From Candidatus Sericytochromatia bacterium (GTDB taxonomy: Bacteria; Cyanobacteriota; Sericytochromatia; JACMPN01): a DNA stretch of 36,577 bases. The notes under the pieces were generated by a model. That model worked only from the letters and a program-made list of their open reading frames with translations, did no database searches and was not told where the DNA came from. Where the stretch lies: assembly GCA_014377495.1 (NCBI GenBank), contig JACMPN010000336.1, forward strand, positions 1 to 36,577, written 5' to 3'. A program made the position numbers and the translations under genes. Of this stretch, positions 18,239 to 35,534 are shown piece after piece. The first letter of the stretch is position 1, and every line of letters begins with the position of its first letter.

Positions 18239-18607
18239 ATGGAAATCCGCCAAGTCAATGTCTCTGACTCTGCCATGATGAAGCAGGAAGTCGCCAAGGA
18301 AACGAAGAAGGACGGCGGCAAGTCGGAAACGAACGCCAAGTCGACACCGACGACCGAACAGAACCTCTTCAACCGGCCCTACGGCGCAGACGGCACGACC
18401 CTGTCCAAGGGCGAGGCTTACAACCCGCTCTCGACCATTTTGCCCGAGAGCAAGATGGAAGAAGCCCGCCGCCGCCTCAAGGACGAAGACGACACCAAAA
18501 AGCGTAAGAAGAAAAAAGACGAGAAGAAGAAGCAGGGCAACAACTTCTGGTCGTGGCTGATGGGTGACAACGCCAGTACCGCCGGCGACCGTGACCCTGA
18601 CGAGTAG
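18239..18607 (+). CDS. Hypothetical charged, Lys-rich protein
   Basis: GGGGAGG SD and biased codons; contains KKRKKKKDEKKK and FWSWLMG. Confidence 0.8.
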   Translation: MEIRQVNVSDSAMMKQEVAKETKKDGGKSETNAKSTPTTEQNLFNRPYGADGTTLSKGEAYNPLSTILPESKMEEARRRLKDEDDTKKRKKKKDEKKKQGNNFWSWLMGDNASTAGDRDPDE

Positions 18608-18739
18608 CGGCGCTATTCAGGCCCACCTGCTTTGACGGCCCGATCCTCACGTCCCGACGGACGCGACGGACCGGGCCTTTGTCATTGATTCGCCTCCACG
18701 TTGTTTCGGACCGCGCATCTGGACCTGCCTAGCACCGCT
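18606..18739. repeat. Stop-codon-anchored rod palindrome, copy 1
   Basis: Outer stem AGCGGCGCTA/TAGCACCGCT; core GGCCCACCTGCTTTG (from 18620) and CGCATCTGGACC (18714-18725); 37-nt inner hairpin 32/37 identical to copy 2. Confidence 0.85.
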
Positions 18740-18999
18740 TGGACGCCGCCGGTCTCGACGGACCGACGGCGTACTCGGCTGACACACCGTCAACACTTGG
18801 ACAACACAGGTTGAATTTGCGTTAGAACCCTTGATGCGACGGCCTTGCGGTACCCGTGTCGCAAGGCAACCGCCACTGACACGGTTTACACTAAAGAGAT
18901 CACGTCGTCCCAGGCGTGTTCCCGCCCGTCAGCCGTCAGCGTCACCGCATGGCATGCCGCTGGCACCGCCCCCCGCATTCGCAGCCCTATGGAGCCACG

Positions 19000-19365
19000 A
19001 TGTCCACCCAATCAACCCCGCCGAGCGAGATCACCAATCCCGTCACAGCCCTCATCCTGTCCGCCGTCACCTGCAACCTGTACGAACTGTTCGTCTGGTG
19101 GCCCAACCGGCTGAAAACGATCAACGCGCTGTTGGGGCGTGACGAATTCAAGTACGGCACCATCCTGATGCTGTCGATCCTCACCTGCGGCCTGATGTAC
19201 ATCTACTACGACTACAAGACCGCAGAAGCGATCCTTGAGATCCGCCGCAAGAAGGGCTTGGCGGGTTCCGAGTCCCTGCCACTGATGACCGTCATCATGG
19301 ATTGCATGGCTCTGACCTTCATCACCAGCTACATGCACCAGGAAGAGATCAACAAGCTGGTATGA
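19000..19365 (+). CDS. DUF4234-like membrane protein
   Basis: Two similar hydrophobic motifs (ALILSAVTCNLY and LMLSILTCGLMY) and C-terminal HQEEINKL; GGAG SD before ATG 19000. Confidence 0.75.
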   Translation: MSTQSTPPSEITNPVTALILSAVTCNLYELFVWWPNRLKTINALLGRDEFKYGTILMLSILTCGLMYIYYDYKTAEAILEIRRKKGLAGSESLPLMTVIMDCMALTFITSYMHQEEINKLV

Positions 19366-19769
19366 GCCCCGGCTTCGCCAGATCCCGTTGGCTGCTGCCC
19401 GGCCTCCTGGTCGTTGCCGGCAGCACCCGTCTGGCGTTTCAACTCGCCCTCCACGCCGACTGGGCGGCACTCGACCATGGCCCTATCCTTTGCCTTTTCC
19501 GGGCCCTGACAGGCATTCCCTGTCCCGGATGCGGCATGACCAGGGCCATGATTGCGTTTGCGATGGGGGATTGGCATCGGGCAGCCGACTACAACCTGCT
19601 GGCCCTGCCCCTCTTCCTGACTGTGATCGCCCACAGCCTCATCCAATGGCTGCCCGCACCCATCCAGGCCCGATGGCAGACCCTGCTCACATCCCGCCGC
19701 CTGACGGGCACAGCCCTGGCCGTCATCACGGCGACCTGGCTCTGGACGCTCGGCCATCCGACGTTCTAA
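19362..19769 (+). CDS. DUF2752 family membrane protein
   Basis: CLFRALTGIPCPGCGMTRA...YNLL signature; ATGA overlap with the upstream gene. Confidence 0.88.
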   Translation: MSPGFARSRWLLPGLLVVAGSTRLAFQLALHADWAALDHGPILCLFRALTGIPCPGCGMTRAMIAFAMGDWHRAADYNLLALPLFLTVIAHSLIQWLPAPIQARWQTLLTSRRLTGTALAVITATWLWTLGHPTF

Positions 19770-19796
19770 ACGGGATCGCAAAGCAATCCCGCACTC

Positions 19797-19899
19797 AGGG
19801 ACGTCAGAGTGGTCCAGATGCGAAGAGACCCCGGCCCGTAGCGTCCGTCTGGACGTAAGGGTCGGGGTCTCAAAGCAGGTGGGCCGCTATGGCGTCCCT
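19797..19899. repeat. Stop-codon-anchored rod palindrome, copy 2
   Basis: Outer stem AGGGACGTCA/TGGCGTCCCT; core GGTCCAGATGCG (19811-19822) and CAAAGCAGGTGGGCC (19871-19885); abuts the sigma factor stop codon. Confidence 0.85.
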
Positions 19900-20901
19900 T
19901 TAGTCGTCGTGGAGATACTCGTCAAGGCGTTTCCGCATGCCGTGATGACGGAGCTTGCGCAACGCCTTGGCTTCAATCTGGCGGATCCGCTCCCGGGTGA
20001 CACCCATCTTGGTGCCGATCTCGGCCAAGCTGCGCGGGCGGTCGTCATAGAGACCGTAGCGCATGGTCAGGATCTCCTGCTCCCGGGTGGTGAGCACGGA
20101 CAGCACTTCGGCGATGTCCTCGGAAAGCATCTTGTGGGCGACCGTCCGGGTCGGGTGACCCGAGTACTCGTCCTCGATCAGATCGACCAGGCTGCGATCG
20201 TCGTCTGGACCGACCGGCGTGGCCAGCGAGACGGTGCGCTTGACGATCCGCTTCAGCTGGCGGATCTTCGCCACAGGCAGTTCGGCGGCGACGGCCAACT
20301 CTTCGTCGGTCGGATACCGGCCGAGATCAAAGGTCAACTGGCGGCGGATCTTCTTGAGACGCTGGATCGCTTCGGTGGCATGGACCGGCAACCGGATGTT
20401 CCGGCCTTTGTCAGCAATGGCCCGGGTGATCGCCTGGCGGATCCACCACGTCGCATACGTGCTGAAGCGGTAGCCCTTGGTGTAGTCGTACTTCTCAACA
20501 GCCCGGATCAGACCGGTGTTGCCTTCTTGGATCAGGTCGAGCAGCGGCAGGCCGAGGTCGCAATAGCGCTTGGCGATCGACACGACCAGCCGCAGGTTGG
20601 CGGTGATCAAGTGGTTCTTCGCCCGCTGGTCGCTCTGGGCGACCCGCTTGGCCAGTTCGATCTCGTCTTCGGCCGTCAGCAGCGGTGTCTTACCGATCGA
20701 GTTCAGATAGACCTGGATTGAGCTGATCTCGTCTTCGCGGGCGGGACGCAGGTTCTCCTCGTCGACGCTGAGCGTCTCGGACTCCATCTCGTCTTCTTCT
20801 TCAGCTGCCGGGGCCGCCGCAGGCGCCTCGGGCGTTTCTTCGACCACTTCTTCGACTTGGGTATCCATCACAGTAAGATCAAGTTTTTCAGACATCATCA
20901 T
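19900..20901 (-). CDS. RNA polymerase sigma70 factor, RpoD/RpoS-like (group 1 or 2)
   Basis: Region 1.2 [11 protein letters not shown]; region 2 [21 protein letters not shown] and [16 protein letters not shown]; region 4.2 [16 protein letters not shown]. Confidence 0.95.
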
Positions 20902-21107
20902 CGGTTCTTAAACCCCTCCCCATATGGCGGTTGCCTGGATCAGGTCCTTGCGCACCGAAAACTAAACTGCCGGTCTGCCGTAGCAGGGAACTTTCAGCAG
21001 TCCGTCGGTGACGGGTGGTTCCTTGTACCGGCTTTCGTGCCGGTATTTAATCCGTTCTTAACGAACTTCGGTCACCTTTAACAGAGCAACTCCGTTCGCA
21101 ACTCTCA

Positions 21108-21136
21108 ATGGTAGCGGTTACGCAGCCGGAAGTCAA
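21108..21136 (-). promoter_or_regulatory. Sigma70-type promoter of the sigma factor gene
   Basis: Minus strand TTGACT-N17-TACCAT, implying a leader of about 200 nt. Confidence 0.7.
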
Positions 21137-21363
21137 GCTGAGCACGCTGCCTTGCCGTTATATAGCCACACTGCACCATGACCCTATCGCTTAACATTCC
21201 GATAAAAAATTCCCCTCTTTTTTCCTAACCTGATTATGCCGAGATTAAGGCGGGGCGGCCAAACGATGACGATCAGGCGGCTCTGGCGCTCACCCTTGGG
21301 ACGGGCTGGCCAAACAAAGGGGGCACAATCGGCCCAAACGGGGCCTAATTTGGAGATTGTCGG

Positions 21364-21392
21364 TTGACGCTCAGTAGGGCGTTTGCTATAAA
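21364..21392 (+). promoter_or_regulatory. Sigma70-type promoter of the tRNA-tuf operon
   Basis: TTGACG-N17-TATAAA with TG extension, 12 nt before the first tRNA. Confidence 0.85.
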
Positions 21393-21404
21393 TCCACCGG
21401 GTTG

Positions 21405-21480
21405 GCCGACGTAGCTCAATTGGCAGAGCAGCAGTTTTGTAAACTGCCGGTTGCGGGTTCGAGTCCCATCGTCGGCTCCA
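21405..21480 (+). tRNA. tRNA-Thr(TGT)
   Basis: Acceptor GCCGACG/CGTCGGC; anticodon arm GCAGT-TTTGTAA-ACTGC; TTCGA loop; encoded CCA. Confidence 0.95.
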
Positions 21481-21496
21481 AGCCCAACAGACTCTT

Positions 21497-21579
21497 GGGG
21501 AGATGGCCGAGTGGTTAATGGCAGCAGACTGTAAATCTGCCCTCTCACGAGTACGAAGGTTCGAATCCTTCTCTCCCCA
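21497..21579 (+). tRNA. tRNA-Tyr(GTA)
   Basis: Acceptor GGGGAGA/TCTCCCC; anticodon arm GCAGA-CTGTAAA-TCTGC; long variable arm; CCA not encoded. Confidence 0.95.
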
Positions 21580-21592
21580 AACCGGTAAACAT

Positions 21593-21665
21593 GCCCAGAT
21601 AGCTCAGTTGGTAGAGCACGTCCTTGGTAAGGACGAGGTCACGGGTTCGAGTCCCGTTCTGGGCT
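21593..21665 (+). tRNA. tRNA-Thr(GGT)
   Basis: Acceptor GCCCAGA/TCTGGGC; anticodon arm CGTCC-TTGGTAA-GGACG; CCA not encoded. Confidence 0.95.
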
Positions 21666-21791
21666 TTTCCCTATGCTCCGGATTTCCGGAGTAACCGGAT
21701 CGGCCTGCGGCCCAGCCGCGTGGTTTCGAGACAGAGTCGGTTTTTCTCGGGATATGACTATTGCGTTGTGTTGTAAGGACGAATAGGCACC

Positions 21792-23009
21792 ATGGCGAGA
21801 CAGAAATTTGAGCGCAACAAGACCCACGTCAACGTGGGCACCATCGGCCACGTTGACCACGGCAAGACGACTTTGACCGCAGCCATCACCATGACGCTCG
21901 CCGCCATGGGTCAAGCGACGATCCGCAAATACGACGAGATCGATGCCGCTCCGGAAGAAAAAGCCCGTGGCATCACGATCAACACGGCTCACGTCGAATA
22001 CGAGACGGTCAAACGGCATTATGCCCACGTCGACTGCCCCGGACACGCTGACTACGTGAAGAACATGATCACCGGTGCCGCCCAGATGGACGGCGCCATC
22101 CTGGTTTGCTCGGCCGCTGACGGCCCCATGCCTCAGACCCGGGAGCACATCCTGCTCGCCCGTCAGGTCGGCGTGCCGAACCTGGTTGTCTTCCTGAACA
22201 AGGCCGACATGGTCGACGACGCCGAATTGTTGGAACTCGTTGAGATGGAAGTCCGCGACCTCCTCAACTCCTACAAGTTTGAAGGCGACGTCATCCCCTT
22301 CATCTCCGGCTCGGCCCTCAAGGCCTGCGAACAGATGACGGCGAACCCCAAGACCCTGCGTGGCGAGAATGAATGGACTGACAAGATCTGGGCCCTGATG
22401 GATGCTGTCGACAGCTACATCCCCGATCCCGTCCGTGACATCGACAAGCCGTTCCTGATGGCCGTCGAAGATGTCTTCTCCATCACGGGTCGTGGCACGG
22501 TGGCCACTGGCCGGATCGAGCGTGGCAAAGTCCGCATCCAGGACGAAATCGAAATCATCGGTCTGCGCGACACCATCAAGGCGATCGTCACCGGCGTCGA
22601 GATGTTCCGCAAACTGCTCGACGAGGGCATGGCCGGCGACAACGTGGGCGTCCTGCTCCGTGGCGTCGACAAGACGATGATCGAGCGTGGACAGGTTCTG
22701 GCCAAGGCCGGTTCCATCAAGCCGCACACCAAGTTCACCTCCGAGGTTTACGTGCTCAGCAAGGAAGAGGGCGGTCGTCATACCCCGTTCTTCGCCGGCT
22801 ATCGCCCGCAGTTCTATGTGCGGACCACCGATGTGACCGGCAGCATCACGTTGCCCGAAGGCGTCGAGATGGTTATGCCCGGTGACAACATCCAGATGGT
22901 CATCGAACTGATCCATCCGGTGGCCATCGAGGAAGGCATGCGTTTTGCCATCCGTGAGGGTGGACGTACTGTCGGTGCCGGCGTCGTCGCCACCATCATC
23001 AAGGAATAA
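21792..23009 (+). CDS. tuf: Elongation factor Tu
   Basis: Motifs [27 protein letters not shown] and [13 protein letters not shown]. Confidence 0.99.
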
Positions 23010-23021
23010 GCAACGGATCTG

Positions 23022-23047
23022 AGGGGCGGCGAAAGCCGCCCCTTTTT
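23022..23047 (+). terminator. Intrinsic terminator after tuf
   Basis: AGGGGCGGC-GAAA-GCCGCCCCT followed by TTTT. Confidence 0.85.
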
Positions 23048-23082
23048 CAGTCTGTGGCTTTTCTCAGCAAAGGCGGACTTCC

Positions 23083-23442
23083 ATGTTGATGCCCGGCTAC
23101 GGTCCTCTGGTGATCATGCTCATCTTTGCGGTGCTCGTGCCCGTCTCCGCCCTGGTGATCAGCCGCATCCTCCAACCCCGGCATGCCACCCCCGTCAAAT
23201 ACACCACCTACGAGTGCGGCGTCGAACCGGTCGGCGGCGCCTGGGTGCAATACACCGTCCGCTACTACCTCTTCGCCCTGGTCTTTCTGATCTTCGACAT
23301 CGAGACGGTGTTCCTCTATCCCTGGGCCGTGGCCTTCCGCCAACTGGGCAGCTTCGCCGTCCTCGAGATGTTCCTGTTCCTGACGATTCTCATCCTCGGA
23401 CTCATTTACGCGTGGCGCAAAGGAGATCTCGAGTGGGTATGA
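23083..23442 (+). CDS. nuoA: NADH-quinone oxidoreductase subunit A (NdhC)
   Basis: Motifs YECGVEP, FLIFDIETVFLYPWAV and YAWRKGDLEW. Confidence 0.96.
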   Translation: MLMPGYGPLVIMLIFAVLVPVSALVISRILQPRHATPVKYTTYECGVEPVGGAWVQYTVRYYLFALVFLIFDIETVFLYPWAVAFRQLGSFAVLEMFLFLTILILGLIYAWRKGDLEWV

Positions 23443-23559
23443 AGGCGGCTGTTCCAAGTTCTTTGCCGACCTGATGAGACGGTTCCGGCATTTTGACGCT
23501 CGTTCAGCAGTAGAGTGGAGTGGGATCACCGGTTTTCACACCTGCGGTTAGGGGGAACG

Positions 23560-24096
23560 ATGGCCACCAGCATGAATGCCCTGGATCGACTCAACGAGGC
23601 GGACCGCGACGAACTCGATCGCAGCCTGCTGATCACTACCATCGATGAGGCCTACAACTGGGCCAAGGCCTCCTCCATCTGGCCCCTGACCTTTGCCACC
23701 GCCTGCTGTGGCATCGAGATGATCTCCGTGACCACCCCACGGTACGACCTTGCCCGTTTCGGCTCTGAGGTCTTCCGGGCCACGCCCCGTCAGGCCGACC
23801 TGATGATCACCGCCGGGACAATCACCAAGAAGATGGCCCCGGCCATGGTCACCCTCTTCGAACAGATGCCCGAGCCCAAATACGTCATTGCCATGGGCAA
23901 CTGCGTCATCCAGGGCGGTATCTTCAAGAACTGCTATTCCGTCCTCGACGGCGTCGACCAGGTTCTGCCCGTCGATATCTACCTGCCCGGATGTCCGCCC
24001 CGCCCTGAGGCGCTGATGGATGCGCTGATCAAGCTCAAGGCCAAGATCCGTCGCGAAGAATCCATCCTCACCCGTTCCGAGAGACTCCGCCGATGA
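23560..24096 (+). CDS. nuoB: NADH-quinone oxidoreductase subunit B (NdhK)
   Basis: Motifs ACCGIEM, PRQADLM and PGCPPRPE. Start reassigned to ATG 23560. Confidence 0.96.
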   Translation: MATSMNALDRLNEADRDELDRSLLITTIDEAYNWAKASSIWPLTFATACCGIEMISVTTPRYDLARFGSEVFRATPRQADLMITAGTITKKMAPAMVTLFEQMPEPKYVIAMGNCVIQGGIFKNCYSVLDGVDQVLPVDIYLPGCPPRPEALMDALIKLKAKIRREESILTRSERLRR

Positions 24097-24605
24097 GCAC
24101 CATCGCCAAGAAAATCATGCCGGTCGCCAATACCGAGGCGCTGGTGGCCAAATTTCCGGAGACCACCGTCGTCGCCCCCGATGCCAACACCATCGTCACG
24201 GTGGAGATCCACGCTGATCGCTTGCCGGCCGTCGTCCAGTACCTGCGGGACGATGAGGGCTACGGCTACATGCCGAACATCGCCTCGGTCGACTACCTCG
24301 AAACCCAGCAACTGGGCATGATCTACCACCTCTATCGGCTTAGCGACGGCAGCCGCCTCGCCATCCGCGTCAAGGTGCCCCGGGATGCCCCCGTCGTGCC
24401 CTCCATCGCCCACCTGTTCGCTGCGGCGAACTGGAACGAACGGGAAGCCTTTGACCTGATGGGCATCGTCTTTAGCGGCCATCCCAACCTCAAACGGCTG
24501 CTCATGCCCGACGACTGGATCGGCCATCCCCTGCGCAAAGACTACGTGCAGGAACAGTACGAGCTGCCCTGCGCCTTCTTTGACAAAAAGACCACCTGGG
24601 TCTAA
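24093..24605 (+). CDS. nuoC: NADH-quinone oxidoreductase subunit C (NdhJ)
   Basis: ANWNEREAFDLMGIVFSGHPNLKRLLMPDDWIGHPLRKDY. Confidence 0.96.
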   Translation: MSTIAKKIMPVANTEALVAKFPETTVVAPDANTIVTVEIHADRLPAVVQYLRDDEGYGYMPNIASVDYLETQQLGMIYHLYRLSDGSRLAIRVKVPRDAPVVPSIAHLFAAANWNEREAFDLMGIVFSGHPNLKRLLMPDDWIGHPLRKDYVQEQYELPCAFFDKKTTWV

Positions 24606-24661
24606 GCCGGACCGACCATCGCTCCCCACCAAAGCCGGTGGATCTAGCAGGAAAAACGCCC

Positions 24662-25768
24662 ATGATCGAGTTCAAAACCGAAGAGATGACCATCAACATG
24701 GGGCCCAACCACCCCAGTACCCACGGGGTGTTGCGGCTCATCCTCAAACTGGACGGCGAAATCGTCAAGGACTGCGAGCCGGTCATCGGCTACCTGCACC
24801 GCTCCATCGAACGCTCCGGGCAGGACCTCACCTACTACCAGTTCATCCCCGTCCTCGATCGCTTCGACTACCTGAGCAATATTTTCTCCGAGTACGTCTA
24901 CGTCCTCGCTGTCGAAAAGGTCGCCGGCATCGAGTGCCCCGTCCGGGCCGACTTCATCCGGGTCCTGACCATGGAGATCAACCGGATCACGTCGCACCTG
25001 TTCTGGCTCGGCACGTTCGTCCTCGATCTCGGGGCGACCAGCATCATCATGTACACGATGCGGGAACGGGAACTGCTCTTCGATCTCCTGGAAGAGCTGA
25101 CCGGCCAGCGGATGATGTACAACTACATCCGCATCGGCGGCGTCAACCACGACCTGCCCCCGGGCTGGACCGACCGCCTGCGGGACTTTCTGAAAAACTT
25201 CCGCAACCGCATCGATGAATACGAATCCATCGTCACCGACAACCCGATCTTCCGGGCCCGGGTGGAGAACATCGGTGTCCTCAAGCTGGACCGGCTCATG
25301 TCCTATGGCGTCACCGGCCCCACCCTGCGAGCCTCTGGCATGGCCTACGACCTCCGGCGGGATGAACCCTACTCCGTCTACGACCAGCTGGACTTTGACA
25401 TCCCGACCGGCAAAAACGGGGACAGCCTCGACCGCTACCGGGTCCGCCTGCAGGAAATGCGTGAGTCGGCAAAAATCCTCGAACAGGCCCTGGCCATGAT
25501 CCCCGAGGGGCACGTCAAAGCCCGCAAGATCCCCGCCCTGTACAAGGCTCCGCCCGGTGAAGCCTACGTGCAAATCGAGGCGCCACGGGGCAACATGGGC
25601 TGTTACTATATCTCCGATGGCAGCACACGGCCGGCCCGGGTCAAGCTGCGGGGCGCCAGCTTCCACAATCTGGCCATCCTGCCTGAAGCGATCAAAGGGT
25701 CACCCATCTCCGACATCATGGCCATATTCGGCAGCATGGATGTCATCATCCCCGAAGTCGACCGTTAG
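24662..25768 (+). CDS. nuoD: NADH-quinone oxidoreductase subunit D (NdhH)
   Basis: NMGPNHPSTHGVLRL, GYLHR, EAPRG and C-terminal EVDR; no NiFe CxxC motifs. Confidence 0.96.
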   Translation: MIEFKTEEMTINMGPNHPSTHGVLRLILKLDGEIVKDCEPVIGYLHRSIERSGQDLTYYQFIPVLDRFDYLSNIFSEYVYVLAVEKVAGIECPVRADFIRVLTMEINRITSHLFWLGTFVLDLGATSIIMYTMRERELLFDLLEELTGQRMMYNYIRIGGVNHDLPPGWTDRLRDFLKNFRNRIDEYESIVTDNPIFRARVENIGVLKLDRLMSYGVTGPTLRASGMAYDLRRDEPYSVYDQLDFDIPTGKNGDSLDRYRVRLQEMRESAKILEQALAMIPEGHVKARKIPALYKAPPGEAYVQIEAPRGNMGCYYISDGSTRPARVKLRGASFHNLAILPEAIKGSPISDIMAIFGSMDVIIPEVDR

Positions 25769-25851
25769 AAAGGGTTGAGCACCGTCATGACGCCCCTCAC
25801 CACCTTTTTAAACCGGTTGCACATCGTTCACGCCACGATGCGGGTCGCCGC

Positions 25852-26898: not shown

Positions 26899-26911
26899 GG
26901 AAGGCCCGGCC

Positions 26912-27826: not shown

Positions 27827-27837
27827 ACCCAGCAACC

Positions 27838-28365: not shown

Positions 28366-28680
28366 ATGATTGCCGTCGGCCTTAACCATTTCTTGTTCCT
28401 GGGCACTGCGCTTTTTTGCCTGGGCCTCTGGGGCGTGATCACCAGTCGCCATGCGATCCGGGTCCTGATGAGTATTGAGCTGATGCTCAACGCCGTGAAC
28501 ATCAACCTCGTCGCCTTCAACAACTACGTCACGCCGGCCAGGGGGCGCGGACAGGTCTTTGCGCTGTTCGTCATGGCTGTGGCCGCCGCCGAAGCGGGGG
28601 TCGCCCTGGCGATCATCCTCAACCTGTACACGAACTTCCGCGACGTCGACATGAACCAAATCAACCTGATGAAGTGGTAG
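28366..28680 (+). CDS. nuoK: NADH-quinone oxidoreductase subunit K (NdhE)
   Basis: Motifs LMSIELMLNAVNINLVAF and AAAEAGVALA. Confidence 0.95.
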   Translation: MIAVGLNHFLFLGTALFCLGLWGVITSRHAIRVLMSIELMLNAVNINLVAFNNYVTPARGRGQVFALFVMAVAAAEAGVALAIILNLYTNFRDVDMNQINLMKW

Positions 28681-28690
28681 GGATCCGTCC

Positions 28691-30586
28691 ATGAGTTTCG
28701 CCTTGACCCAGGTGTGGTGGGTGGCCCTGCTGCCCGGCCTGGCCGCCGTCATCATCGCCCTGTTCACCCGCCAGCAGCGACAGATCTCCGCCGCCCTGGC
28801 CCTCGCCAGCACCGGCTTGTCTTTCCTGATGTCCCTCGCCATCATGAGCGCCGCCTTCACCGGTGGCCAGAGTGCCCTGTCGACGACGTTCGGGGCCTAC
28901 CGCTGGACGACCGTCGGCAGCCAGTCCCTCTACGTCGCCTGGGGCTTGACCCCCCTGTCCGCCCTGATGCTGGTCGTCGTCACCCTGGTCAGTGGCCTCG
29001 TGCAGGTCTACTCCCTCGCCTATATGAAGGACGAAGCACCCCGGGCCTTCAGCCGCTACTATGGCGCTTTGGCCCTGTTCACCTTTTCGATGCTGGCCCT
29101 AGTCATCGCCGACAACCTGCTGATGATCTTCGCCGGCTGGGAACTCGTCGGTGTCAGCTCGTTCCTGCTCATCGGGTTCTGGTTCAAAAAGCCGGCAGCG
29201 GCCAAAGCCGCCAACAAAGCCTTCCTGGTCAACCGTATCGGCGATCTGGGCATGCTCGTCGGCATCCTGCTGCTCTACAGCTACACCCATGAGCTGGGCT
29301 TCGGGGCCAATGTCCAGGCCATCGCCAAAGGCGTCATCCCGGCCACGACGCTGGGCGTGATCATGTTTCTGCTCTTCTGGGGCCCGATCGGCAAATCCGC
29401 CCAGGTGCCCCTGCACGTCTGGCTGCCGGACGCCATGGAAGGCCCCACCCCCGTTTCCGCCCTGATCCATGCCGCGACCATGGTCGCCGCCGGCGTCTAC
29501 TTTGTCGGGCGGCTCTTCGAAATGTTCGTCCTCGCCCCGGCCATGGTCCTGAACATCGTCGCCGGTGTCGGGGCCCTGACGGCCGTCCTGGCCGCCGCCA
29601 TCGCCCTGGTGCAGACCGACATCAAGAAGGTGCTGGCCTACTCGACCGTCAGCCAGCTCGGCTTCATGATGCTGGCCCTCGGCATGGGCCCGGTTGGCTA
29701 CAAGGCCGGTCTGTTCCACCTGTTCACCCACGCCTTTTTCAAAGCGCTGCTCTTCCTCGGGGCCGGCTCGGTCATTCATGCCGTGCACACCCAGGACATC
29801 CGCGAGATGGGCGGGCTGAAAGCCGCCATGCCGCTGACCCGGATCACCTTTTTGATTGGCACGCTGAGCATCACGGGCCTGCCGTTCCTCACGGCCGGGT
29901 TCTGGAGCAAAGAGGCGATCTTCCACGCCACGTGGGCTCACAACCCCGGCATCTTCGCCCTTGCCGTCGTCGCCGCCACGATGACCGCCTTTTACATGTT
30001 CCGCCTGTACTTCCTCACCTTCGAGGGCAGCTACCGTGGCCACGCCCACCCGCATGAGTCCCCGACGCTGATGACGGCACCGCTGCTCATCCTCGCCGTG
30101 CCCTCGATCGCCGCCGGCTGGCTCGACACGGGGATGTTCGGCCATGCCATCGACCGGTTCCTGGCCTATGGCGGCGTCGGCGCCGAGCAGGTCCATGCCA
30201 CGGCCGGCATGGACTGGCCGCTGGTCGCCCTGAGTGCGGCGATCTTCGCTGTCGGTACGGGTCTGGCCTACGCCATCTATATCCGCAAGACCGTCGATGC
30301 CGCCGGCTGGGCCAAGGACTGGCCCGGCCTGCACGACATGCTGAGCCACAAGTTTTACATCGACGAGGCCTATGCCACGTTCGTTGATCGGGTGGTCTTG
30401 GGCTGGGCCTCGGTGGCGGCAATGCTGGACCGCTACGTCGTCGACGGCCTCGTCAACGGTATCGCCATGGGCACCGTCGCCGGCGGCGAGGGCCTGAAAC
30501 TGCTGCAGACGGGCCGGGTACAGACCTACGCCCTCATCGCGACGACGAGCCTCTTCGTCATCGTGTGGATTTTGACCCGGATCTAA
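28691..30586 (+). CDS. nuoL: NADH-quinone oxidoreductase subunit L (NdhF)
   Basis: Motifs WELVGVSSFLLIGFW, GKSAQVPLHVWLPDAMEGPTPVSALIHAATMV and FHLFTHAFFKALLFL. Confidence 0.96.
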   Translation: MSFALTQVWWVALLPGLAAVIIALFTRQQRQISAALALASTGLSFLMSLAIMSAAFTGGQSALSTTFGAYRWTTVGSQSLYVAWGLTPLSALMLVVVTLVSGLVQVYSLAYMKDEAPRAFSRYYGALALFTFSMLALVIADNLLMIFAGWELVGVSSFLLIGFWFKKPAAAKAANKAFLVNRIGDLGMLVGILLLYSYTHELGFGANVQAIAKGVIPATTLGVIMFLLFWGPIGKSAQVPLHVWLPDAMEGPTPVSALIHAATMVAAGVYFVGRLFEMFVLAPAMVLNIVAGVGALTAVLAAAIALVQTDIKKVLAYSTVSQLGFMMLALGMGPVGYKAGLFHLFTHAFFKALLFLGAGSVIHAVHTQDIREMGGLKAAMPLTRITFLIGTLSITGLPFLTAGFWSKEAIFHATWAHNPGIFALAVVAATMTAFYMFRLYFLTFEGSYRGHAHPHESPTLMTAPLLILAVPSIAAGWLDTGMFGHAIDRFLAYGGVGAEQVHATAGMDWPLVALSAAIFAVGTGLAYAIYIRKTVDAAGWAKDWPGLHDMLSHKFYIDEAYATFVDRVVLGWASVAAMLDRYVVDGLVNGIAMGTVAGGEGLKLLQTGRVQTYALIATTSLFVIVWILTRI

Positions 30587-30597
30587 AGGCGAAAACG

Positions 30598-32103
30598 ATG
30601 AACCCCTACGAGCAAAACCACTTCCTCCTGGCCGCAATCCTGCTGCTCCCCATGCTGGGAGCGCTGGTCATTGCCCTGGCCCCCAACCCCCTGGGCGGTC
30701 GGGTACCCCAGGCGATCGCCGCCGCCTTTGCCGGCTTGGAGATGATCCTGGTCGGCGTCATGGCCGCCAACTTCGTCCCCTCGGCCTCCCGGGCGAACAC
30801 CTTCGAGTTTATGGACAAGCTGTCCTGGATCCCGCAGTTCAACATCCAGTACCAGGTCGCCGTCGATGGCCTCAGCCTGCCGATGGTCGTGCTGACCGCC
30901 TTGCTGATGTTTGTCGCGGTGCTGGCCAGTGGCACGATCACCAAGAATCCAAAGCTGTACTTTGTGCTGCTGATGGTCCTGGAAAGCGCCGTCATCGGCG
31001 TCTTCACCTCGCTGGACCTGTTCCTCTTCTTCGTCATGTGGGAGCTGGAACTGATCCCGATGTACTTTTTGATCGGGATGTTCGGCGGCAAGAACCGTGA
31101 ATACGCCGCCATGAAGTTCATCCTCTACACCGGGCTGGCCTCGGCCCTGATGCTGATCGTCTTCCTGTCGATCTACTTCCTCAACCCGGCCCACACCTTC
31201 GACTTCCTGGCCCTGCAGGGGACCAAGGTGTTCAGCCAGTACGCCGGCTGGGTCCAGGTCCTGGCCTTTGCGGCCCTACTCGTCTGCTTTGCCGTCAAAC
31301 TGCCCATGGTGCCCTTCCATACCTGGTTGCCCGACGCCCACGTCGAAGCACCGACAGCCGTGTCCGTCCTGCTCGCCGGCGTGCTGCTGAAGATGGGCGC
31401 CTACGGGATGATCCGCTTCAACCTCGGCCTCTTCGGGTTGGAAGCCGCCAAACCCTTACTGACGACTTTGGCCGTCCTGGCCGTGATCAACATCGTCTAT
31501 GGGGCGTTTCTTGCCTTGGCCCAGACGGACATCAAGCGGGTCATCGCCTACTCTTCGATCAGTCATATGGGCTTTGTCCTGCTCGGCATTGCGGCGATGA
31601 ACCAGATCGGACTTAACGGGGCAGTGCTGATGATGTTCAGCCATGGCCTGATCACCGCCATGCTCTTCCTGTTTGTGGGGGTGATCTACGATCGCACCCA
31701 TACCCGGGAGATCAAGGAACTGGGGGGTCTGGCGGCAATCATGCCTACGGCCGGTGCCATCTTCGTCTTTACGGCGATGGCCAATGTCGGGGTGCCGGGC
31801 CTTTCCGGCTTTGCCGGTGAGTTTCTCGTCTTCCTGGGGGCCTTCCAGAGCTTCCAGGCCCTGACCATCGTCGCCGCCACGAGCCTGGTGCTGACCGCCG
31901 CCTACACCCTCTGGTTGACGCAGCGGGTCTGGTTCCAGGCCCTGCCCGACCGCTGGGCAAAACTGACTGATCTGAATGGGGTCGAAGCCTTCAACCTGCT
32001 GGTCCTGGCGGCCGGGGTGTTGGTTTTGGGCATTTACCCCGCCCTACTGACCGATGTCATCAATCCAGCCACCACCAAGCTGGTTGCGTTGCTGGGAGTG
32101 TAA
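30598..32103 (+). CDS. nuoM: NADH-quinone oxidoreductase subunit M (NdhD)
   Basis: Motifs VDGLS, WELELIPMY and PFHTWLPDAHVEAP. Start reassigned to ATG 30598. Confidence 0.96.
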   Translation: MNPYEQNHFLLAAILLLPMLGALVIALAPNPLGGRVPQAIAAAFAGLEMILVGVMAANFVPSASRANTFEFMDKLSWIPQFNIQYQVAVDGLSLPMVVLTALLMFVAVLASGTITKNPKLYFVLLMVLESAVIGVFTSLDLFLFFVMWELELIPMYFLIGMFGGKNREYAAMKFILYTGLASALMLIVFLSIYFLNPAHTFDFLALQGTKVFSQYAGWVQVLAFAALLVCFAVKLPMVPFHTWLPDAHVEAPTAVSVLLAGVLLKMGAYGMIRFNLGLFGLEAAKPLLTTLAVLAVINIVYGAFLALAQTDIKRVIAYSSISHMGFVLLGIAAMNQIGLNGAVLMMFSHGLITAMLFLFVGVIYDRTHTREIKELGGLAAIMPTAGAIFVFTAMANVGVPGLSGFAGEFLVFLGAFQSFQALTIVAATSLVLTAAYTLWLTQRVWFQALPDRWAKLTDLNGVEAFNLLVLAAGVLVLGIYPALLTDVINPATTKLVALLGV

Positions 32104-32105
32104 CT

Positions 32106-33668
32106 ATGGCCGTCGCCTCCAAAGAATCCAAAACCATCCTCACCCCGCAGGGGAGCTCCCTCGTCCCCATCGGGGGCGCCGTACTGCTGATCCTGCTCTG
32201 TGCCTACCTGGCTGTGGCCTGGGCGCCCATCGTGGCGGCCGAGATCACGGTGGCCGCCACGGCGATCGCCATCCTCGTCGCCGACTGGTTCGTGCCCAAA
32301 GAAAAGCAGAGTCAACTCGGCCTGCTCGGTATCTTCGGCCTCATGGCCGCCATCGGGATGATGATCGGCGTGCGGACGTCCGGCTACGAAGCGCCCGCGG
32401 CCTTTGGCGGCATGTTCATCACCAGTGGCTTTTCGACGCTGTTCAGGCTGATGATCCTGGGCACCGGCGCCCTGTCGCTGACCCTGAGCCTGGATTACGT
32501 CGGCCGGCGGATCACCCAGTACGGCGAGTATTACGTCCTGATCGTCCTCGCCATCCTGGGCGGCATGCTGCTCGCCGCCGCCAACGAGATGGTGACCTTC
32601 TACCTGGCCCTGGAACTGGTCTCGATCCCCAGCTATATCCTGGTCAGCCTGCGCAAGTCGGAGGCCCGTTCCAGCGAAGCCGGCCTGAAGTACCTGATCT
32701 TCGGCGCCCTCAGTTCGGCTTTCCTGCTGTACGGCTTTTCCTGGGTGTTCGGGATGACCGGCACGACGGACTTTTCGGCTGCGGCCGTGTCCATCAGCAA
32801 CACCGGGGTCAACCCGCCATTGGTCTTTGCGATGGCCCTATGCATCGCCGGTGTCCTCTATAAGGTGTCAGCCGCCCCTTTCCACATGTGGACGCCGGAC
32901 GTGTATGAAGGCGCCCCCATGCCGGTGACGGCCTTTTTGGCCATGACCTCCAAGCTCATCGGTGTGGCCGCCTTGCTCAAGCTCCTCGTCGTGCCGTTCA
33001 GTTCGGGCCAGTTGGAGACCCGCTGGGTCCTGATGATCGCCGTCCTGTCTGCGGTGACGATGACCCTGGGCAATCTGGTGGCCCTGGCCCAGCGCAACAT
33101 CAAACGATTGTTTGCCTATTCGAGCATTGCCCATGGCGGATATCTGCTGAGCGGCATGGTGGCGGCCTATCGTCCGGACACGCTGAATGCCAGCCTCGGC
33201 TCGGTGACGTTCTACCTGATCACATACGCCCTGATGAATCTGGGCGCCTTTGCCGTGATGCTCTATGTCGGTCGCGAGCAGGACTCTGCCGAGCTGAGCG
33301 CCTATGCGGGCCTGGCGAAACGGGCGCCCTGGACGGCGGCGATCTTCAGCCTCTGCCTGATGTCGCTGGCGGGCCTGCCGCCCTTGGCGGGTTTCATGGG
33401 CAAGTTCTATCTGTTCGGCGCTGCCGTGCAGGCCGGTTTCACCTGGCTGGCACTCGTCGGCGTCTTGAACTCCGTGGTCTCGCTGTATTACTACGTGGCG
33501 ATCATCAAACTGATGTACTTCCGGGAACCGGCCGACACCAAGCCCTATGCCCCGCCGTCGCCGGGCATCGCCCTGGCCATGGTCCTCAGTGCCATCAGCG
33601 TGGTCGCCCTGTTCGTCGCCCCATCCCCCCTCTTGTCGGTGATCTCCAACTTCGTCTCCAACATGTAA
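32106..33668 (+). CDS. nuoN: NADH-quinone oxidoreductase subunit N (NdhB)
   Basis: Motifs EAGLKY, PFHMWTPDVYEGAP, KRLFAYSSIAHGGY and SLAGLPP. Confidence 0.96.
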   Translation: MAVASKESKTILTPQGSSLVPIGGAVLLILLCAYLAVAWAPIVAAEITVAATAIAILVADWFVPKEKQSQLGLLGIFGLMAAIGMMIGVRTSGYEAPAAFGGMFITSGFSTLFRLMILGTGALSLTLSLDYVGRRITQYGEYYVLIVLAILGGMLLAAANEMVTFYLALELVSIPSYILVSLRKSEARSSEAGLKYLIFGALSSAFLLYGFSWVFGMTGTTDFSAAAVSISNTGVNPPLVFAMALCIAGVLYKVSAAPFHMWTPDVYEGAPMPVTAFLAMTSKLIGVAALLKLLVVPFSSGQLETRWVLMIAVLSAVTMTLGNLVALAQRNIKRLFAYSSIAHGGYLLSGMVAAYRPDTLNASLGSVTFYLITYALMNLGAFAVMLYVGREQDSAELSAYAGLAKRAPWTAAIFSLCLMSLAGLPPLAGFMGKFYLFGAAVQAGFTWLALVGVLNSVVSLYYYVAIIKLMYFREPADTKPYAPPSPGIALAMVLSAISVVALFVAPSPLLSVISNFVSNM

Positions 33669-33769
33669 GCGTCACGGCGGTGGATGGGTGGGGCAACGGT
33701 GTTTATTTCAGGCATGAAATCGCCAAGAATCGGGTATAAGACGGGTATCACGACAGAGGATGGCCCGCC

Positions 33770-35326
33770 ATGATTACCAACGACATCAAAGCTGCGCAGA
33801 CCGCCGGTCAGGTTGTGGGCCGTCCGCTGACACTGAGCGACAGTGACAAGCTGCGTGCCCTTGACCGGAAGGTGCTGGGTGCAAACGGCGTCACCAAAGA
33901 CGGCAACCTCACCAAAGAGGATGCTGCGGCGCTGATCCAGAAACTCATTGGATCACCCTTCGCCACCACGCCGCAGCAGACGGAAAAACTCGAAGGTTTG
34001 ATCAAGCAGTCTGGGATCTCCCAGACCACCGCCAACTTCCTCCGCCGGACCGCCAATCCCGATGATCAACCCAGCGATTCCTTACAATTGGCGGTGACTG
34101 CCGTCAACTTGGACGTGACCACCCCAAGCGACCAGGCCACCCTCGCCAGGTTTGATGTCCAGGGGGACCAAACCGTTTCCGCTGGCGACGTCAGCAAGAC
34201 CATCAGGAGCGAGTTGGGCATCGACAACACCAAGCCGCTCACCAAGGAACAGACGACTTCGATCAACAAGTGGGTGACGTCCCTCGGCCTCAGCCACCAA
34301 GCCACGGGCGTGATCCGGGATCTGGCTTTGGGCCGTGCCGGTGGTACCGCCGACGCCATCCGTCTGGCAGCCACACCGAGCGGCTTGAGCTTTCCGGTGA
34401 AAGGTTTGGCAGGGCTCGGCGAGAAGGGCAGCAAGATCTTTGCCGCCGTCGATGCCAACAAGGACGGCCAGATCCGGCGAAATGAACTCCTGACCGACCT
34501 CAAGGCAACCGTCGGTCTCGACCTGTCCGGCGTTGAAATCAACTCTTGGGACGACATCCCGAAAGACCAGCACCTGCAAGTCTTTCAGTACTTGGCCCGC
34601 AAGGGGCTGGGCAACGACAGCGCCGTCAAGGATGTCCTGATCGATATCATTTCAAACAAGCCCGGCAGTGAGGGCCTGGCGCTTGCTCCTGAGGGCCAGA
34701 TGCGTGGCATTACCGTCACCAGCGAGACCGAGTCGGCCGCTACCGTGGACGGCTTGAGAGCGCTTGATGAAAACAACAGCGGCAACGTCTCCGACTTGGA
34801 CATGCTGGCCATCGTGAAGAAAGCCACGGGCTGGGACGGTGCCAACATGCGGGCCGGCCAGCGGGAGATCGTCCGGGACTGGCTCGACCAGCTCCAGATC
34901 CCCTGGCAGCTCAAAAACGCCGTGATGGATTTGCTCAATGGCGGCACCGCCATGATGGACGTTATCGGTGTCGGCAAGTCACCCGAGAAGTCCCCCAAGA
35001 CCGAGGCGCTTATCGACGACCTGACCGCCAAGTCCAAGGAGTGCCAGGCGACATTGACTGACAACGAGCCGTCCCGCTTCTCTGAGATGAACAGCATGTC
35101 CAGGAGTGGACCCACCATGAAGCTCGATGGCCAGACGTACGGGGCGGGGATGTCAGGGGTCTACAGCGTGGGCCCGAATGAAACCAAGGAAGCACTGGAC
35201 TTGCCGACCCTCAAGAAGTTTGCCGAGGCATTCAAGGCCGATCCGTTCGCGTTCGAGAAGAACGACCGTGACTCGCTCCAGAAAATGTTGCCCAAAGCCA
35301 TCCAGGAGCTCGAAATCAAGCAGTAG
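33770..35326 (+). CDS. Hypothetical 518-aa protein with four EF-hand-like repeats
   Basis: GAGGA SD; loops DANKDGQIRRNE, DENNSGNVSDLD, DVQGDQTVSAGD and degenerate GVTKDGNLTKED, spaced about 85-120 aa apart. Confidence 0.8.
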   Translation: MITNDIKAAQTAGQVVGRPLTLSDSDKLRALDRKVLGANGVTKDGNLTKEDAAALIQKLIGSPFATTPQQTEKLEGLIKQSGISQTTANFLRRTANPDDQPSDSLQLAVTAVNLDVTTPSDQATLARFDVQGDQTVSAGDVSKTIRSELGIDNTKPLTKEQTTSINKWVTSLGLSHQATGVIRDLALGRAGGTADAIRLAATPSGLSFPVKGLAGLGEKGSKIFAAVDANKDGQIRRNELLTDLKATVGLDLSGVEINSWDDIPKDQHLQVFQYLARKGLGNDSAVKDVLIDIISNKPGSEGLALAPEGQMRGITVTSETESAATVDGLRALDENNSGNVSDLDMLAIVKKATGWDGANMRAGQREIVRDWLDQLQIPWQLKNAVMDLLNGGTAMMDVIGVGKSPEKSPKTEALIDDLTAKSKECQATLTDNEPSRFSEMNSMSRSGPTMKLDGQTYGAGMSGVYSVGPNETKEALDLPTLKKFAEAFKADPFAFEKNDRDSLQKMLPKAIQELEIKQ

Positions 35327-35368
35327 ATCGATCCGGCAGGTGATTGCCGGATCTCACGCCTCAGCATG

Positions 35369-35405
35369 AAACAGCCCCCGAATCACAATGATTCGGGGGC
35401 TGTTT
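35369..35405 (+). terminator. Intrinsic terminator, possibly bidirectional
   Basis: Perfect 17-bp stem AAACAGCCCCCGAATCA-caa-TGATTCGGGGGCTGTTT between convergent genes. Confidence 0.85.
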
Positions 35406-35423
35406 GTTGTGCACAGTGGAACG

Positions 35424-35534
35424 GATTGACGGGTCGTGGGGTCCCAGATGCGTAGTGGGCAGGGGCCGACTGGTACCGGAAGGTACCCGAGGCCCCTGCC
35501 CACATAGCAGGTGGGGCCTCACGGCCCGCCAATC
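35424..35534. repeat. Stop-codon-anchored rod palindrome, copy 3
   Basis: Outer stem GATTGACGGGTCGTG/CACGGCCCGCCAATC; core GGTCCCAGATGCG (from 35440) and CATAGCAGGTGGGGCC (to 35518); perfect 13-bp inner stem; apical GGTACC-GGAA-GGTACC. Touches the nfuA stop. Confidence 0.85.

Follow-up and report, generated by a model that had tools for sequence, protein, structure and literature searches.

Dispersed rod-shaped palindromic repeats, frequently anchored on stop codons, in a Sericytochromatia genome

What kind of element begins at the stop codons of unrelated genes and folds into a long rod, and which of its strands is the one that matters? The question is raised by a contig of 36,577 nucleotides (the window, that is, the whole stretch of DNA analysed here) from an uncultured bacterium of the class Sericytochromatia. 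The first-pass annotation had described three palindromic elements in it (w1, w2 and w3), each at or overlapping the stop of a different gene, and their coordinates and stops were re-found. The window also holds a fourth copy, w4 (Table 1), which that annotation had missed, as it had the family of more than 100 copies, their common apical module and the better-folding complementary strand.

Table 1. Copies of the repeat in the window, with their parts and predicted folds (kcal/mol, sense strand and complementary strand).
Copy	Position	Strand	Relation to gene end	5' box	Apical hairpin	3' box	Fold, sense	Fold, complementary
w1	18606..18739	+	rod begins inside stop TAG 18605-18607 of Lys-rich ORF 18239-18607	18620-18634	18650-18663	18714-18725	-60.1	-82.7
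w2	19797..19899	-	starts right after stop TAA 19900-19902 of sigma-70 gene 19900-20901(-)	19871-19885	~19842-19856	19811-19822	-59.5	-80.0
w3	35424..35534	-	stem from G of stop TAG 35534-35536 of Nfu gene 35534-36091(-)	35503-35518	35472-35488	35440-35452	-79.9	-91.1
w4	36339..36474	-	stem begins 6 nt past TGA 36481-36483				-63.7	-64.9

In w1, w2 and w3 we located both boxes that had been reported, the 5' box GGCCC(C)ACCTGCT(T/A)TG starting 12, 14 and 15 nt after the respective stop, and the 3' box CGCATCTGG(G)ACC. The 5' box has three matches in the window against 0.26 expected, a number reached in 0 of 100 shuffles, and as rods the three copies have z values of -4.8 to -12.2 relative to shuffles, none of 200 being equal on either strand. 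Pfam identified the gene of w2 as a sigma-70 factor with four Sigma70 domains and that of w3 as Nfu_N plus NifU, and gave no match for the Lys-rich ORF upstream of w1. The three are divergent members of the family, and the copies differ in detail. The rod of w2 pairs with the final bases of the sigma-70 stop and has a short outer stem; w1 has an additional insert of about 36 nt in its 3' half (18678-18713); and w4 has the apex CCTAAGG of the family with a bigger insert in the apical part, behind a TGA that ends a frame open to the window end (31 amino acids within the window). On recount, w1 and w2 match at 32 of 37 positions of their inner hairpins, which contain the T-A to C-G double change noted before, while the inner stem of w3, which had been called different, proved to be a variant of the conserved apical module of the family.

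The family was defined by a covariance model (CM R1), and membership was tested with a model made without the window copies, which still recovered w2 (33.1 bits, E 3.3e-5), w3 (26.5 bits, E 7.6e-4) and w4 (28.7 bits, E 2.7e-4). Copy w1 gave a weak match (14.3 bits, E 0.25) and was assigned to the family because it shares the boxes and matches w2 with 85.7% identity over 56 nt. Further copies were found in number. Over the genome, nhmmer gave 119 matches, and the CM gave 122 at E<=0.001 among the 150 of 4725 candidates that were scored; 11 of these are opposite-strand duplicates, so there are at least about 111 loci. The elements are therefore dispersed, as the first-pass annotation had proposed, with more than 100 copies genome-wide in place of three. 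They follow unrelated genes on more than 90 different contigs, and several copies are located at contig ends. The host genes have no functional theme: 12 of 20 examined had Pfam matches, all unrelated, and the genes ahead of single dispersed copies include those for sigma-70, Nfu, IleRS, thioredoxin and ProC. The repeat family is lineage-restricted. It was not found in the 60 related genomes searched, and its exact core pattern had 0 matches across the genome contig collection and was found on 14 metagenome contigs from relatives.

No known RNA family had been recognised in the elements, and Rfam 15 agrees. At gathering threshold the window contains three tRNAs only; the interval 18500-20000 gave nothing close to threshold at E<=10, and twenty family copies at E<=1 matched miRNA-precursor models only, far below gathering scores. 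The earlier description as an undescribed dispersed structured element is supported.

The elements are rod-shaped imperfect palindromes of about 127 nt, the length from foot to foot being 125, 127 or 129 nt in 42 of 54 copies. The apex is a hairpin of 5-6 bp with a 4-5-nt loop, a near-invariant module flanked by the unpaired and invariant sequences CTAAG and CTGTCG(T/C)C, and these unpaired bases remain invariant across sub-families and in relatives with 70-87% flank identity. Below the apex are nested stems with conserved internal loops between them, one of which comprises the GGCCCACCTGC and GCATCTGGACC boxes of the first-pass annotation. The outer stem of 12-20 bp had been said to pair in spite of unrelated sequence, and across the family its sequence is indeed specific to each copy and compensated: 88.8% of cells are paired versus 63.6% in shuffles, and double changes occur at 29 of 33 pairs, which none of 500 shuffles equalled. 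Minimum free energies of family copies range from -75 to -108 kcal/mol.

Genome-wide, and also in relatives, the elements keep a strongly non-random orientation and distance to stop codons, as the window copies had led one to suppose. In 52 of 88 copies (about 60%) a same-strand ORF of 100 codons or more has its stop at -70 to -51 from the apex; at -65 to -61 there are 33 such stops on the same strand versus 2 on the opposite strand, which has no stop peak at the element foot. As their upstream neighbour, 72 of 88 copies have the end of a gene on the same strand, and 9 of 12 elements on contigs from relatives are anchored to stops likewise. Among the 75 copies with a downstream neighbour, 42 lie inside co-directional pairs and 33 face a convergent gene, the genome baseline being 2369 versus 1444. 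Back-to-back pairs of elements occur, including between convergent genes, with each member anchored to its own gene. Judged from sequence comparison, the stops of the sigma factor and Nfu genes are ancestral; the sigma factor ends in HDD-stop, identical in relatives, and the Nfu protein has 185 amino acids at w3 and 183-186 in orthologous ORFs.

Like intrinsic (rho-independent) terminators, the elements are GC-rich hairpins just 3' of a gene, but they differ from these in having no T-run after the stem and an opposite wobble bias. The region from +1 to +15 of the 3' foot is not T-rich in 54 copies, nor is there a U-tract on the complementary strand. By eye, canonical terminators are present 3' of several copies. 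On the minus strand, w3 is followed by a GTTCCACTGTGCAC tail and then by a canonical hairpin-plus-T terminator at about 35370-35411; a consensus terminator scan of 18000-20600 found none at w1 or w2. Because separate terminators follow several copies, the element is not itself the terminator, and since it lies upstream of the ordinary terminator of the gene where this was seen, its co-transcription as 3' UTR is expected.

A rod between stop codon and ordinary terminator could act as RNA on the sense strand, blocking 3'-to-5' exonucleases, leaving no ribosome-free gap or meeting the terminating ribosome. E. coli REPs no more than about 15 nt from a stop codon reportedly interact with the terminating ribosome. 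Such a role, which we consider possible but rather unlikely, would agree with an orientation that follows the gene even in back-to-back pairs, with the 42 copies inside co-directional pairs and with a foot placed exactly at the stop codon, a translation signal. On the other hand, a terminating ribosome, given its footprint, would open roughly the outermost 12 bp of the stem, so that a stem at the stop would be unneeded for protection, and the stem is without a trailing U-tract.

The two strands do not fold equally well. For 80 of 86 copies the fold predicted for the strand complementary to the mRNA is the more stable one (-82.0 versus -68.6 kcal/mol); with DNA parameters this holds for 76 of 86, and in relatives for 11 of 12 elements. 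On the sense strand the outer arms contain 83 A.C-type mismatches versus 26 G.U, and the hypervariable part 35 versus 11 (p 5e-4); conserved positions of the family are likewise C.A mismatches on the sense strand and G.U pairs on the other. Counted over the 54-copy alignment, G.U pairs on the complementary strand outnumber A.C by 225 to 45 (5:1). As a control, 133 terminator-like hairpins of the same genome showed the opposite bias, with 75 G.U versus 36 A.C. For the elements, selection on a sense RNA would predict the opposite bias, which is also the one that real terminators have; the asymmetry and the terminator control together weaken the case for a sense-strand RNA motif. Of the two possibilities left by the first-pass annotation, a regulatory RNA motif at the 3' end or a single-stranded DNA hairpin recognised by a protein, the latter is thus favoured. 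The wobble asymmetry could also come from strand-biased repair instead of selection.

A better-folding complementary strand would also be expected if the hairpin insulated genes from antisense RNA, stopping or destroying transcripts that come from downstream just before these run antisense into the ORF. The coincidence of the hairpin end with the ORF boundary and the back-to-back elements between convergent genes are in line with this. Convergent neighbours are not clearly enriched, and the advantage of the complementary strand is independent of context (38 of 42 copies with a co-directional and 30 of 32 with a convergent downstream gene), which makes it less likely that the molecule that folds is an antisense transcript. 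Moreover, no conserved downstream sequence is suited as a promoter, nor did a scan of the window find one; at w3 the convergent gene and the element are separated by a bidirectional terminator, and the complementary-strand hairpin has no U-tract 3' of it. We regard insulation as very unlikely.

The orthologous loci, a comparison that the first-pass annotation had proposed, were filled in some cases and empty in others, and one orthologous site carries different sub-types; turnover of this kind is typical of mobile DNA. In pairs with near-identical cores, identity falls from about 100% at the apex to about 35% at the feet, which are the least conserved part (30-45% identity where cores are at least 88% identical). 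Two recent duplicates, C331 and C480, differ by a compensatory A-T to G-C change. An apex-to-feet gradient is what conversion tracts centred on the core would give, and this gradient, the compensatory change, the exchange of core sub-types at one site and host genes of no common function could all be produced by a selfish or neutral palindrome maintained by template switching, gene conversion and a putative strand-biased mismatch repair, with no structure-specific function. That explanation is unlikely in our judgement, as it leaves unexplained the stop anchoring, the fixed orientation, the fixed length of 125-129 nt and the invariance of the unpaired apical bases across sub-families and relatives.

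We tentatively prefer, at somewhat less than an even chance, to read the elements as REP/ERIC-class repeats, selfish or domesticated, in which selection would act on the hairpin that the strand complementary to the mRNA forms as single-stranded DNA. A putative protein would read this bottom-strand hairpin by means of the invariant unpaired apical bases, by analogy with integron integrases, which read attC bottom strands, and RAYTs, which read REP hairpins. It may install, convert or maintain copies at gene ends, and the weaker sense RNA hairpin in the mRNA would be a tolerated or secondarily useful by-product.

Like REP, BIME and REPIN sequences, the elements are dispersed high-copy palindromes, lineage-specific and located between co-directional or convergent genes. 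REPs measure 20-40 bp, in contrast to the fixed length of about 127 nt here, where the conserved module caps a long stem specific to each copy and about 60% of copies are anchored on stop codons in one orientation. By its length the whole element is not a REP unit. The passages of PMC3733652 that deal with REPs describe them as lineage-specific, dispersed high-copy palindromes mostly 3' of coding regions, recognised by conserved unpaired tags beside a short stem-loop, some of them inside longer palindromes, and as including CGTC-type REPs with 8-9-bp stems and no known transposase. By this written description, the apical module, with its 5-6-bp stem, 4-5-nt loop and then unpaired TGTCGTC, resembles the CGTC REPs. 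A RAYT-mobilised REP was rejected: PF01797 (Y1 transposase) had 0 matches in the host genome (G000), which is 95% complete, and the control was positive in 6 of 14 genomes. A TnpB gene was not found in the genome either, and a Y2 profile search, run with no working control, gave no match.

ERIC/IRU, Correia/nemis, RUP, BOX and RPE repeats, imperfectly palindromic and about 100-170 bp long (ERIC about 127 bp), occupy intergenic regions that are transcribed. They form long RNA hairpins and can alter upstream mRNA stability in an orientation-dependent manner. The likeness of our elements to ERIC and MITE-like repeats, compared by description only, is in size and palindromic form. MITEs are marked by conserved inverted repeats at their termini and by duplication of the target site (TA for ERIC and Correia), whereas here the termini are least conserved. 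Flank and foot logos of 54 copies contained no target-site duplication, conserved terminal inverted repeat or other conserved terminal motif, and membership in the MITEs was rejected.

Integron attC sites start at the stop of an ORF, conserve structure over stem sequence, have unpaired conserved bases and fold best as the complementary strand. The present elements share all of this, and as imperfect palindromes they fall within the attC length range. The core sites R''/R' of attC (RYYYAAC ... GTTRRRY) lie at its ends. In contrast, neither the window copies nor the 54-copy logos have these AAC/GTT boxes at the feet, in agreement with the first-pass annotation; the module is apical and not basal, and copies are single and dispersed behind housekeeping genes and not in cassette arrays. 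IntI was not found, the best match to the integron integrase profile TIGR02249 reaching 52.3 bits versus a cut-off of 265, and so neither of the two kinds of gene that the first-pass annotation had suggested searching for, RAYT/Y1 and integron integrase, was detected. That the elements are attC sites of gene cassettes is essentially refuted. There is a slim chance that attC-like bottom-strand hairpins are installed at the stops of chromosomal genes by a mechanism that senses ORF ends, possibly at the RNA level with reverse transcription; the sole reverse transcriptase of the genome belongs to a group II intron, 400 nt from two copies.

Several observations count against the bottom-strand DNA hairpin as the selected molecule. 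The candidate protein was not found in a 95% complete genome. The element is conserved apically, while in attC and MITEs the ends are the conserved part, and it has no target-site duplication or terminal motif. A DNA-level process leaves the placement at native stops without explanation, and the gene-linked orientation, including that of back-to-back pairs, fits a transcription- or translation-linked role equally. At co-directional genes the complementary strand is the leading-strand template and, by the geometry of replication, is little exposed as single strand. Finally, the sense RNA is predicted to be still a very stable rod (mean -69 kcal/mol), which also speaks for the sense-strand RNA.

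The placement and the functional molecule of dispersed palindromic repeats are rarely clear. In this family about 60% of the more than 100 copies are linked to native stop codons with nucleotide precision, and a strand-specific wobble signature, with terminators as the internal control, points from the mRNA to the complementary strand. Such repeats break assemblies, and in this lineage they will mislead predictors of terminators and sRNAs. If the RNA reading is true, they would be a natural system for hairpins abutting the terminating ribosome, and if attC-like hairpins are installed by sensing ORF ends, a living model for the making of ORF-plus-hairpin units like integron cassettes. If the bottom-strand DNA hairpin is what is read, structure-specific recognition of single-stranded DNA, as in attC, REP-RAYT and IS200/IS605, would gain a new type of element, one with no known enzyme, in a barely studied sister class of Cyanobacteria.

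The three rod-like palindromes described in the first-pass annotation (w1, w2 and w3) were all present, and the description was correct in every detail. Each rod starts on a gene's stop codon or immediately behind it: a Lys-rich ORF, a sigma-70 factor and an Nfu/NifU protein, respectively (Pfam identities). The conserved 5' box follows the stop at 12, 14 and 15 nt, and the 3' box was found in every copy together with an outer stem that is complementary though unrelated in sequence between copies. A recount of the inner hairpins of w1 and w2 gave 32/37 identity and one double change from T-A to C-G. The window has the 5' box 3 times, with 0.26 expected, and the folds of w1 to w3 beat dinucleotide shuffles by far (z -4.8 to -12.2). 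The coordinates are listed in the table.

Family copies and other features (C, contigs of the window's own genome; L038, metagenome contig of a relative; L127, C193:4500-11500)
Feature	Location	Strand	Remarks
Family copy w1	window 18606-18739	+	stop TAG 18605-18607
Family copy w2	window 19797-19899	-	stop TAA 19900-19902
Family copy w3	window 35424-35534	-	stop TAG 35534-35536
Family copy w4	window 36339-36474	-	absent from first-pass annotation; 28.7 bits with covariance model
Nested repeat	window 18678-18713
Nested repeat	L038 about 3700-3745
Nested repeat	C65 about 5400-5450
Terminator	window about 35370-35411		bidirectional-looking, canonical
tRNA genes	window 21405-21665	+	cluster of three (Rfam, 64-74 bits)
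Copies at contig ends	C268:4-138; C443:1-134; C90:1-131; C152; C437
Integrase gene	C340:3618-4148		family element after it
Tyrosine-recombinase genes	C272:2712-5175	-	three in row
Group II intron	L127 1575-3452	-	genome's only reverse transcriptase (RT) found; TIGR04416; Rfam D1-D4, domain V-VI
Family element	L127 3592-3723	+
Family element	L127 3793-3926	-

The observation was confirmed and much enlarged by searching the genome to which the window belongs (5.32 Mb, 686 contigs, 95% complete, 8% contamination). An exact regular expression for the two boxes matched only the three window copies in the whole genome, and a looser fuzzy one was dropped since most of its 1315 matches were spurious. 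Both boxes were also seen in elements elsewhere with a different, highly conserved apex, in which CCTAAG precedes and CTGTCG(T/C)C follows a 4-5-bp hairpin. The apical hairpins of w1 (..CACGTCC-CGAC-GGACGCGACGG), w2 (..TACGTCC-AGAC-GGACGCTACGG) and w3 (..CGGGTACC-TTCC-GGTACCAGTCGG) are variants of this family apex. With 40 copies as query, nhmmer gave 119 matches at E<0.01. A covariance model built from 20 copies, none from the window, gave 122 matches at E<=0.001, or at least about 111 loci after removal of 11 opposite-strand duplicates; this count is a lower bound, as 150 of the 4725 candidates were scored. A number of copies sit at the ends of contigs; the repeat probably breaks the assembly, and the real number of copies is therefore likely to exceed the count.

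The same model scored w2 at 33.1 bits and w3 at 26.5 bits. w1 was only a weak match (14.3 bits, E 0.25), and it is placed in the family because of its 85.7% identity to w2 over 56 nt and the shared boxes. The fourth copy, w4, starts 6 nt past a TGA that ends a frame still open at the window end, and a larger insert lies in its apex. w2 was also found, with 2 differences, on a contig from a second study, and contigs aligned to the window showed no joints across w1 or w2. Some elements carry a smaller second repeat nested within them, with a motif of the ..CCGAAAC.. / ..CCCGGTGGTC.. type in either orientation; the orthologous elements of L038 and C65 carry the same nested insert, and a piece related to it in the w4 apex had only 2 further BLAST matches in the genome.

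The rods are of nearly fixed length. Feet (the outer stem ends) were located by apex-anchored offsets and arm alignment, and among the 54 copies in which they were well defined, 42 measured 125, 127 or 129 nt from foot to foot and 48 fell within 125-129 nt. Over 69 copy pairs whose cores were at least 88% identical, identity was about 100% at the apex, 50-85% (with conserved islands) farther down, and at the background level of 30-45% in the outermost 12 bp. Standard pairs nevertheless filled 88.8% of arm cells versus 63.6% in shuffles, 29 of 33 pairs had changes on both sides (a value reached by 0 of 500 shuffles), and slid controls gave 36-49% pairing. The unpaired apical bases were invariant in a 20-copy alignment. 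A GGT(T/G)CC(G/A)CTGTG tail was found in only a subset of copies, and the regions past the rod had no general homology (of the non-self matches, 12 downstream and 5 upstream, most were to neighbouring copies or to paralogues). Two paralogous gene ends, on C331 and C480, have one copy each; one outer-stem difference between the two is compensatory (A-T to G-C), and two other changes are uncompensated. Template switching in palindromes is known as quasipalindrome correction. As a rival explanation, template switching and conversion between copies may maintain a palindrome that is neutral or selfish; this fits the conservation gradient and some of the compensatory changes, but it accounts for neither the fixed length nor the anchoring to stop codons.

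The anchoring was measured by counting stop offsets from the apical loop of 88 copies, using same-strand ORFs of at least 100 codons. At -65..-61, 33 same-strand stops (first base) were found compared with 2 on the other strand and a flat background of 0-7 per 5-nt bin, and 52/88 copies had a stop at -70..-51. By crude gene calls (4524 genes), a same-strand gene end was the upstream neighbour in 72/88; of these ends, 52 fall between -24 and +3 nt from the nominal foot, and 37 between -5 and +3. Pairing most often starts at the stop's second base (A in 31/54, with T before it in 20/54), while the last paired base is T in 31/54 and the next base G in 26/54. The sigma factor ends in HDD-stop, as it does in four relatives, and the Nfu protein has 185 aa here and 183-186 aa in orthologous ORFs, so in these two checked cases the stop is ancestral. 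Host genes are unrelated to each other and include SpoIIE phosphatase, peptidase C25, ProC, IleRS, thioredoxin, FliL and an SLH protein; a Pfam match was obtained for 12 of the 20 examined. Their C-terminal residues did not depart from the genome baseline. Stop usage at anchored copies (TAA 20, TAG 17, TGA 15) was only marginally different from the 27%, 29% and 44% of the genome by crude calls (chi-square about 5.6, 2 df, rough hand calculation). The downstream neighbour was co-directional in 42 and convergent in 33, with a genome baseline of 2369 to 1444.

No T-run follows the rod in the positions past the 3' foot of 54 copies, and by eye a separate canonical terminator comes after several copies; the rod thus lies within the 3' UTR and is not itself a terminator. 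Downstream of w3, between a convergent EF-hand/dockerin-like gene and the Nfu gene, the window has such a terminator, a perfect GC-rich hairpin between an A-run and a T-run. The main rival reading is a hairpin in the 3' UTR of the sense RNA coupled to translation termination or mRNA decay. Position and orientation would follow from it naturally, but it leaves unexplained the wobble bias described below, and we regard it as rather doubtful.

Unexpectedly, it is the strand complementary to the mRNA of the anchoring gene that folds better. With RNA parameters its mean energy was -82.0 kcal/mol versus -68.6 for the sense strand, and it was better in 80/86 copies (Wilcoxon p 6e-14); with DNA parameters the values were -40.3 and -34.7 (76/86). 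For w1, w2 and w3 the complementary strand gave -82.7, -80.0 and -91.1 versus -60.1, -59.5 and -79.9. The difference is due to wobble pairs. The outer arms of the sense strand have 83 A.C/C.A mismatches, which are G.U on the other strand, versus 26 G.U/U.G, and in the hypervariable part alone the numbers are 35 and 11 (p 5e-4). For instance, the boxes GGCCCA/TGGACC have a sense C.A mismatch that is a G.U pair on the complementary strand. A 54-copy alignment folded on the complementary strand into 45 consensus pairs with 225 G.U and 45 A.C cells (-88.8 kcal/mol) versus 33 pairs on the sense strand (-51.5 kcal/mol). As a control, 133 ordinary terminator-like hairpins that follow genes of this genome and have a T-rich tail and 1-2 non-Watson-Crick positions had the opposite bias, 75 G.U versus 36 A.C; the asymmetry is thus not explained by a mutation bias across the genome. 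The wobble signature indicates that the complementary strand is maintained in a pairable form, whether by selection or by a strand-specific process. An antisense transcript as the general folded molecule would use this strand, but it is unlikely: no conserved promoter-like flank was seen, convergent genes were not in clear excess, and the asymmetry was equal in operon-like contexts (co-directional 38/42, convergent 30/32).

The family is lineage-restricted. No Rfam family matched the elements in scans of the window, of its positions 18500-20000 and of family copies, and the covariance model had no match in a set of 60 other genomes, of which 46 share the class and 14 the phylum, none being from the same family or order. 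The sigma factor has its best relatives in Candidatus Sericytochromatia MAGs, with 74-87% aa identity for orthologous copies, and the model found nothing at 18 loci of related MAGs (15 orthologues and 3 paralogues of the sigma gene). An exact 19-base core pattern had 0 records in genome_contigs and 0 in viral_contigs, and was present in 14 metagenome contigs with flanking genes 69-87% identical to those of the window's genome. These carry about 16 elements. Of 12 elements inspected, 9 have a long same-strand ORF that stops at model positions +3..+7, with none on the other strand, and the complementary strand folds better in 11/12. Comparing relatives' contigs with our genome, one site is filled in L042 and empty in C474, where an ordinary terminator is found, and a second is filled in L041 and empty in C401. 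Others are filled in both (L034/C203, L033/C52 and L035/C494), the two elements of L035/C494 having cores of different sub-types and unrelated outer stems. Filled and empty sites and sub-type swaps indicate the kind of turnover that mobile or converting DNA would show.

A known parallel is the effect on translation of E. coli REPs that lie within about 15 nt of a stop codon. Like REPs, the family has a gene-distal location, lineage specificity and a short tagged stem-loop, which here differs in being placed at the apex of a longer palindrome. A Rfam family, a MITE, an attC site and a terminator were each rejected, as their defining features were tested and not found. Published work (PMC3733652) describes REPs set within longer palindromes and CGTC-tagged REPs without transposase; the apical module of the family resembles the latter as described there, apart from their 8-9-bp stems, and may be related to them. 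No description of such a family was found in the one library searched, judged from titles and abstract openings. It is well supported that the elements form a new, lineage-restricted family of REP/ERIC-class repeats, which are dispersed rod-like palindromes anchored on stop codons.

A retron or DGR was also rejected; the sole RVT_1 match belongs to the RT/maturase of a group II intron (TIGR04416, 401 bits). The intron's GTGCG 5' end comes directly after the hairpin-plus-T terminator of a tRNA gene (L127 3504-3577), and two back-to-back family elements lie 140-470 nt upstream of the intron, a closeness that may be chance. The three tyrosine-recombinase genes have a recombinase-in-trio arrangement. 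The HIP1 palindrome is a cyanobacterial hallmark; in this non-photosynthetic sister class, the HIP1-like GGCGATCGCC is in excess (246 versus 19.6 expected from base composition), and GCGATCGC occurs 421 times versus 188 expected.

The first-pass annotation had proposed a possibly undescribed dispersed structured element, either an RNA motif or an ssDNA hairpin. This is supported, and the ssDNA branch is favoured over the RNA branch, given the wobble signature and the unlikelihood of a general antisense transcript. The working form may, as a tentative reading short of probable, be a bottom-strand ssDNA hairpin. A putative protein would read the folded bottom strand via the unpaired bases that are invariant at the apex, by analogy with REP-RAYT and with attC sites, whose recombination uses the bottom strand. 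Against this reading, the genome was found to have no Y1, TnpB or IntI gene (nor any Y2 match, in a search without a working control), the conserved part is apical and not terminal, and the reading lacks a DNA-level mechanism for finding native stop codons. The precision of the stop-codon anchoring, together with the reversed strand signature, is what makes the family interesting.
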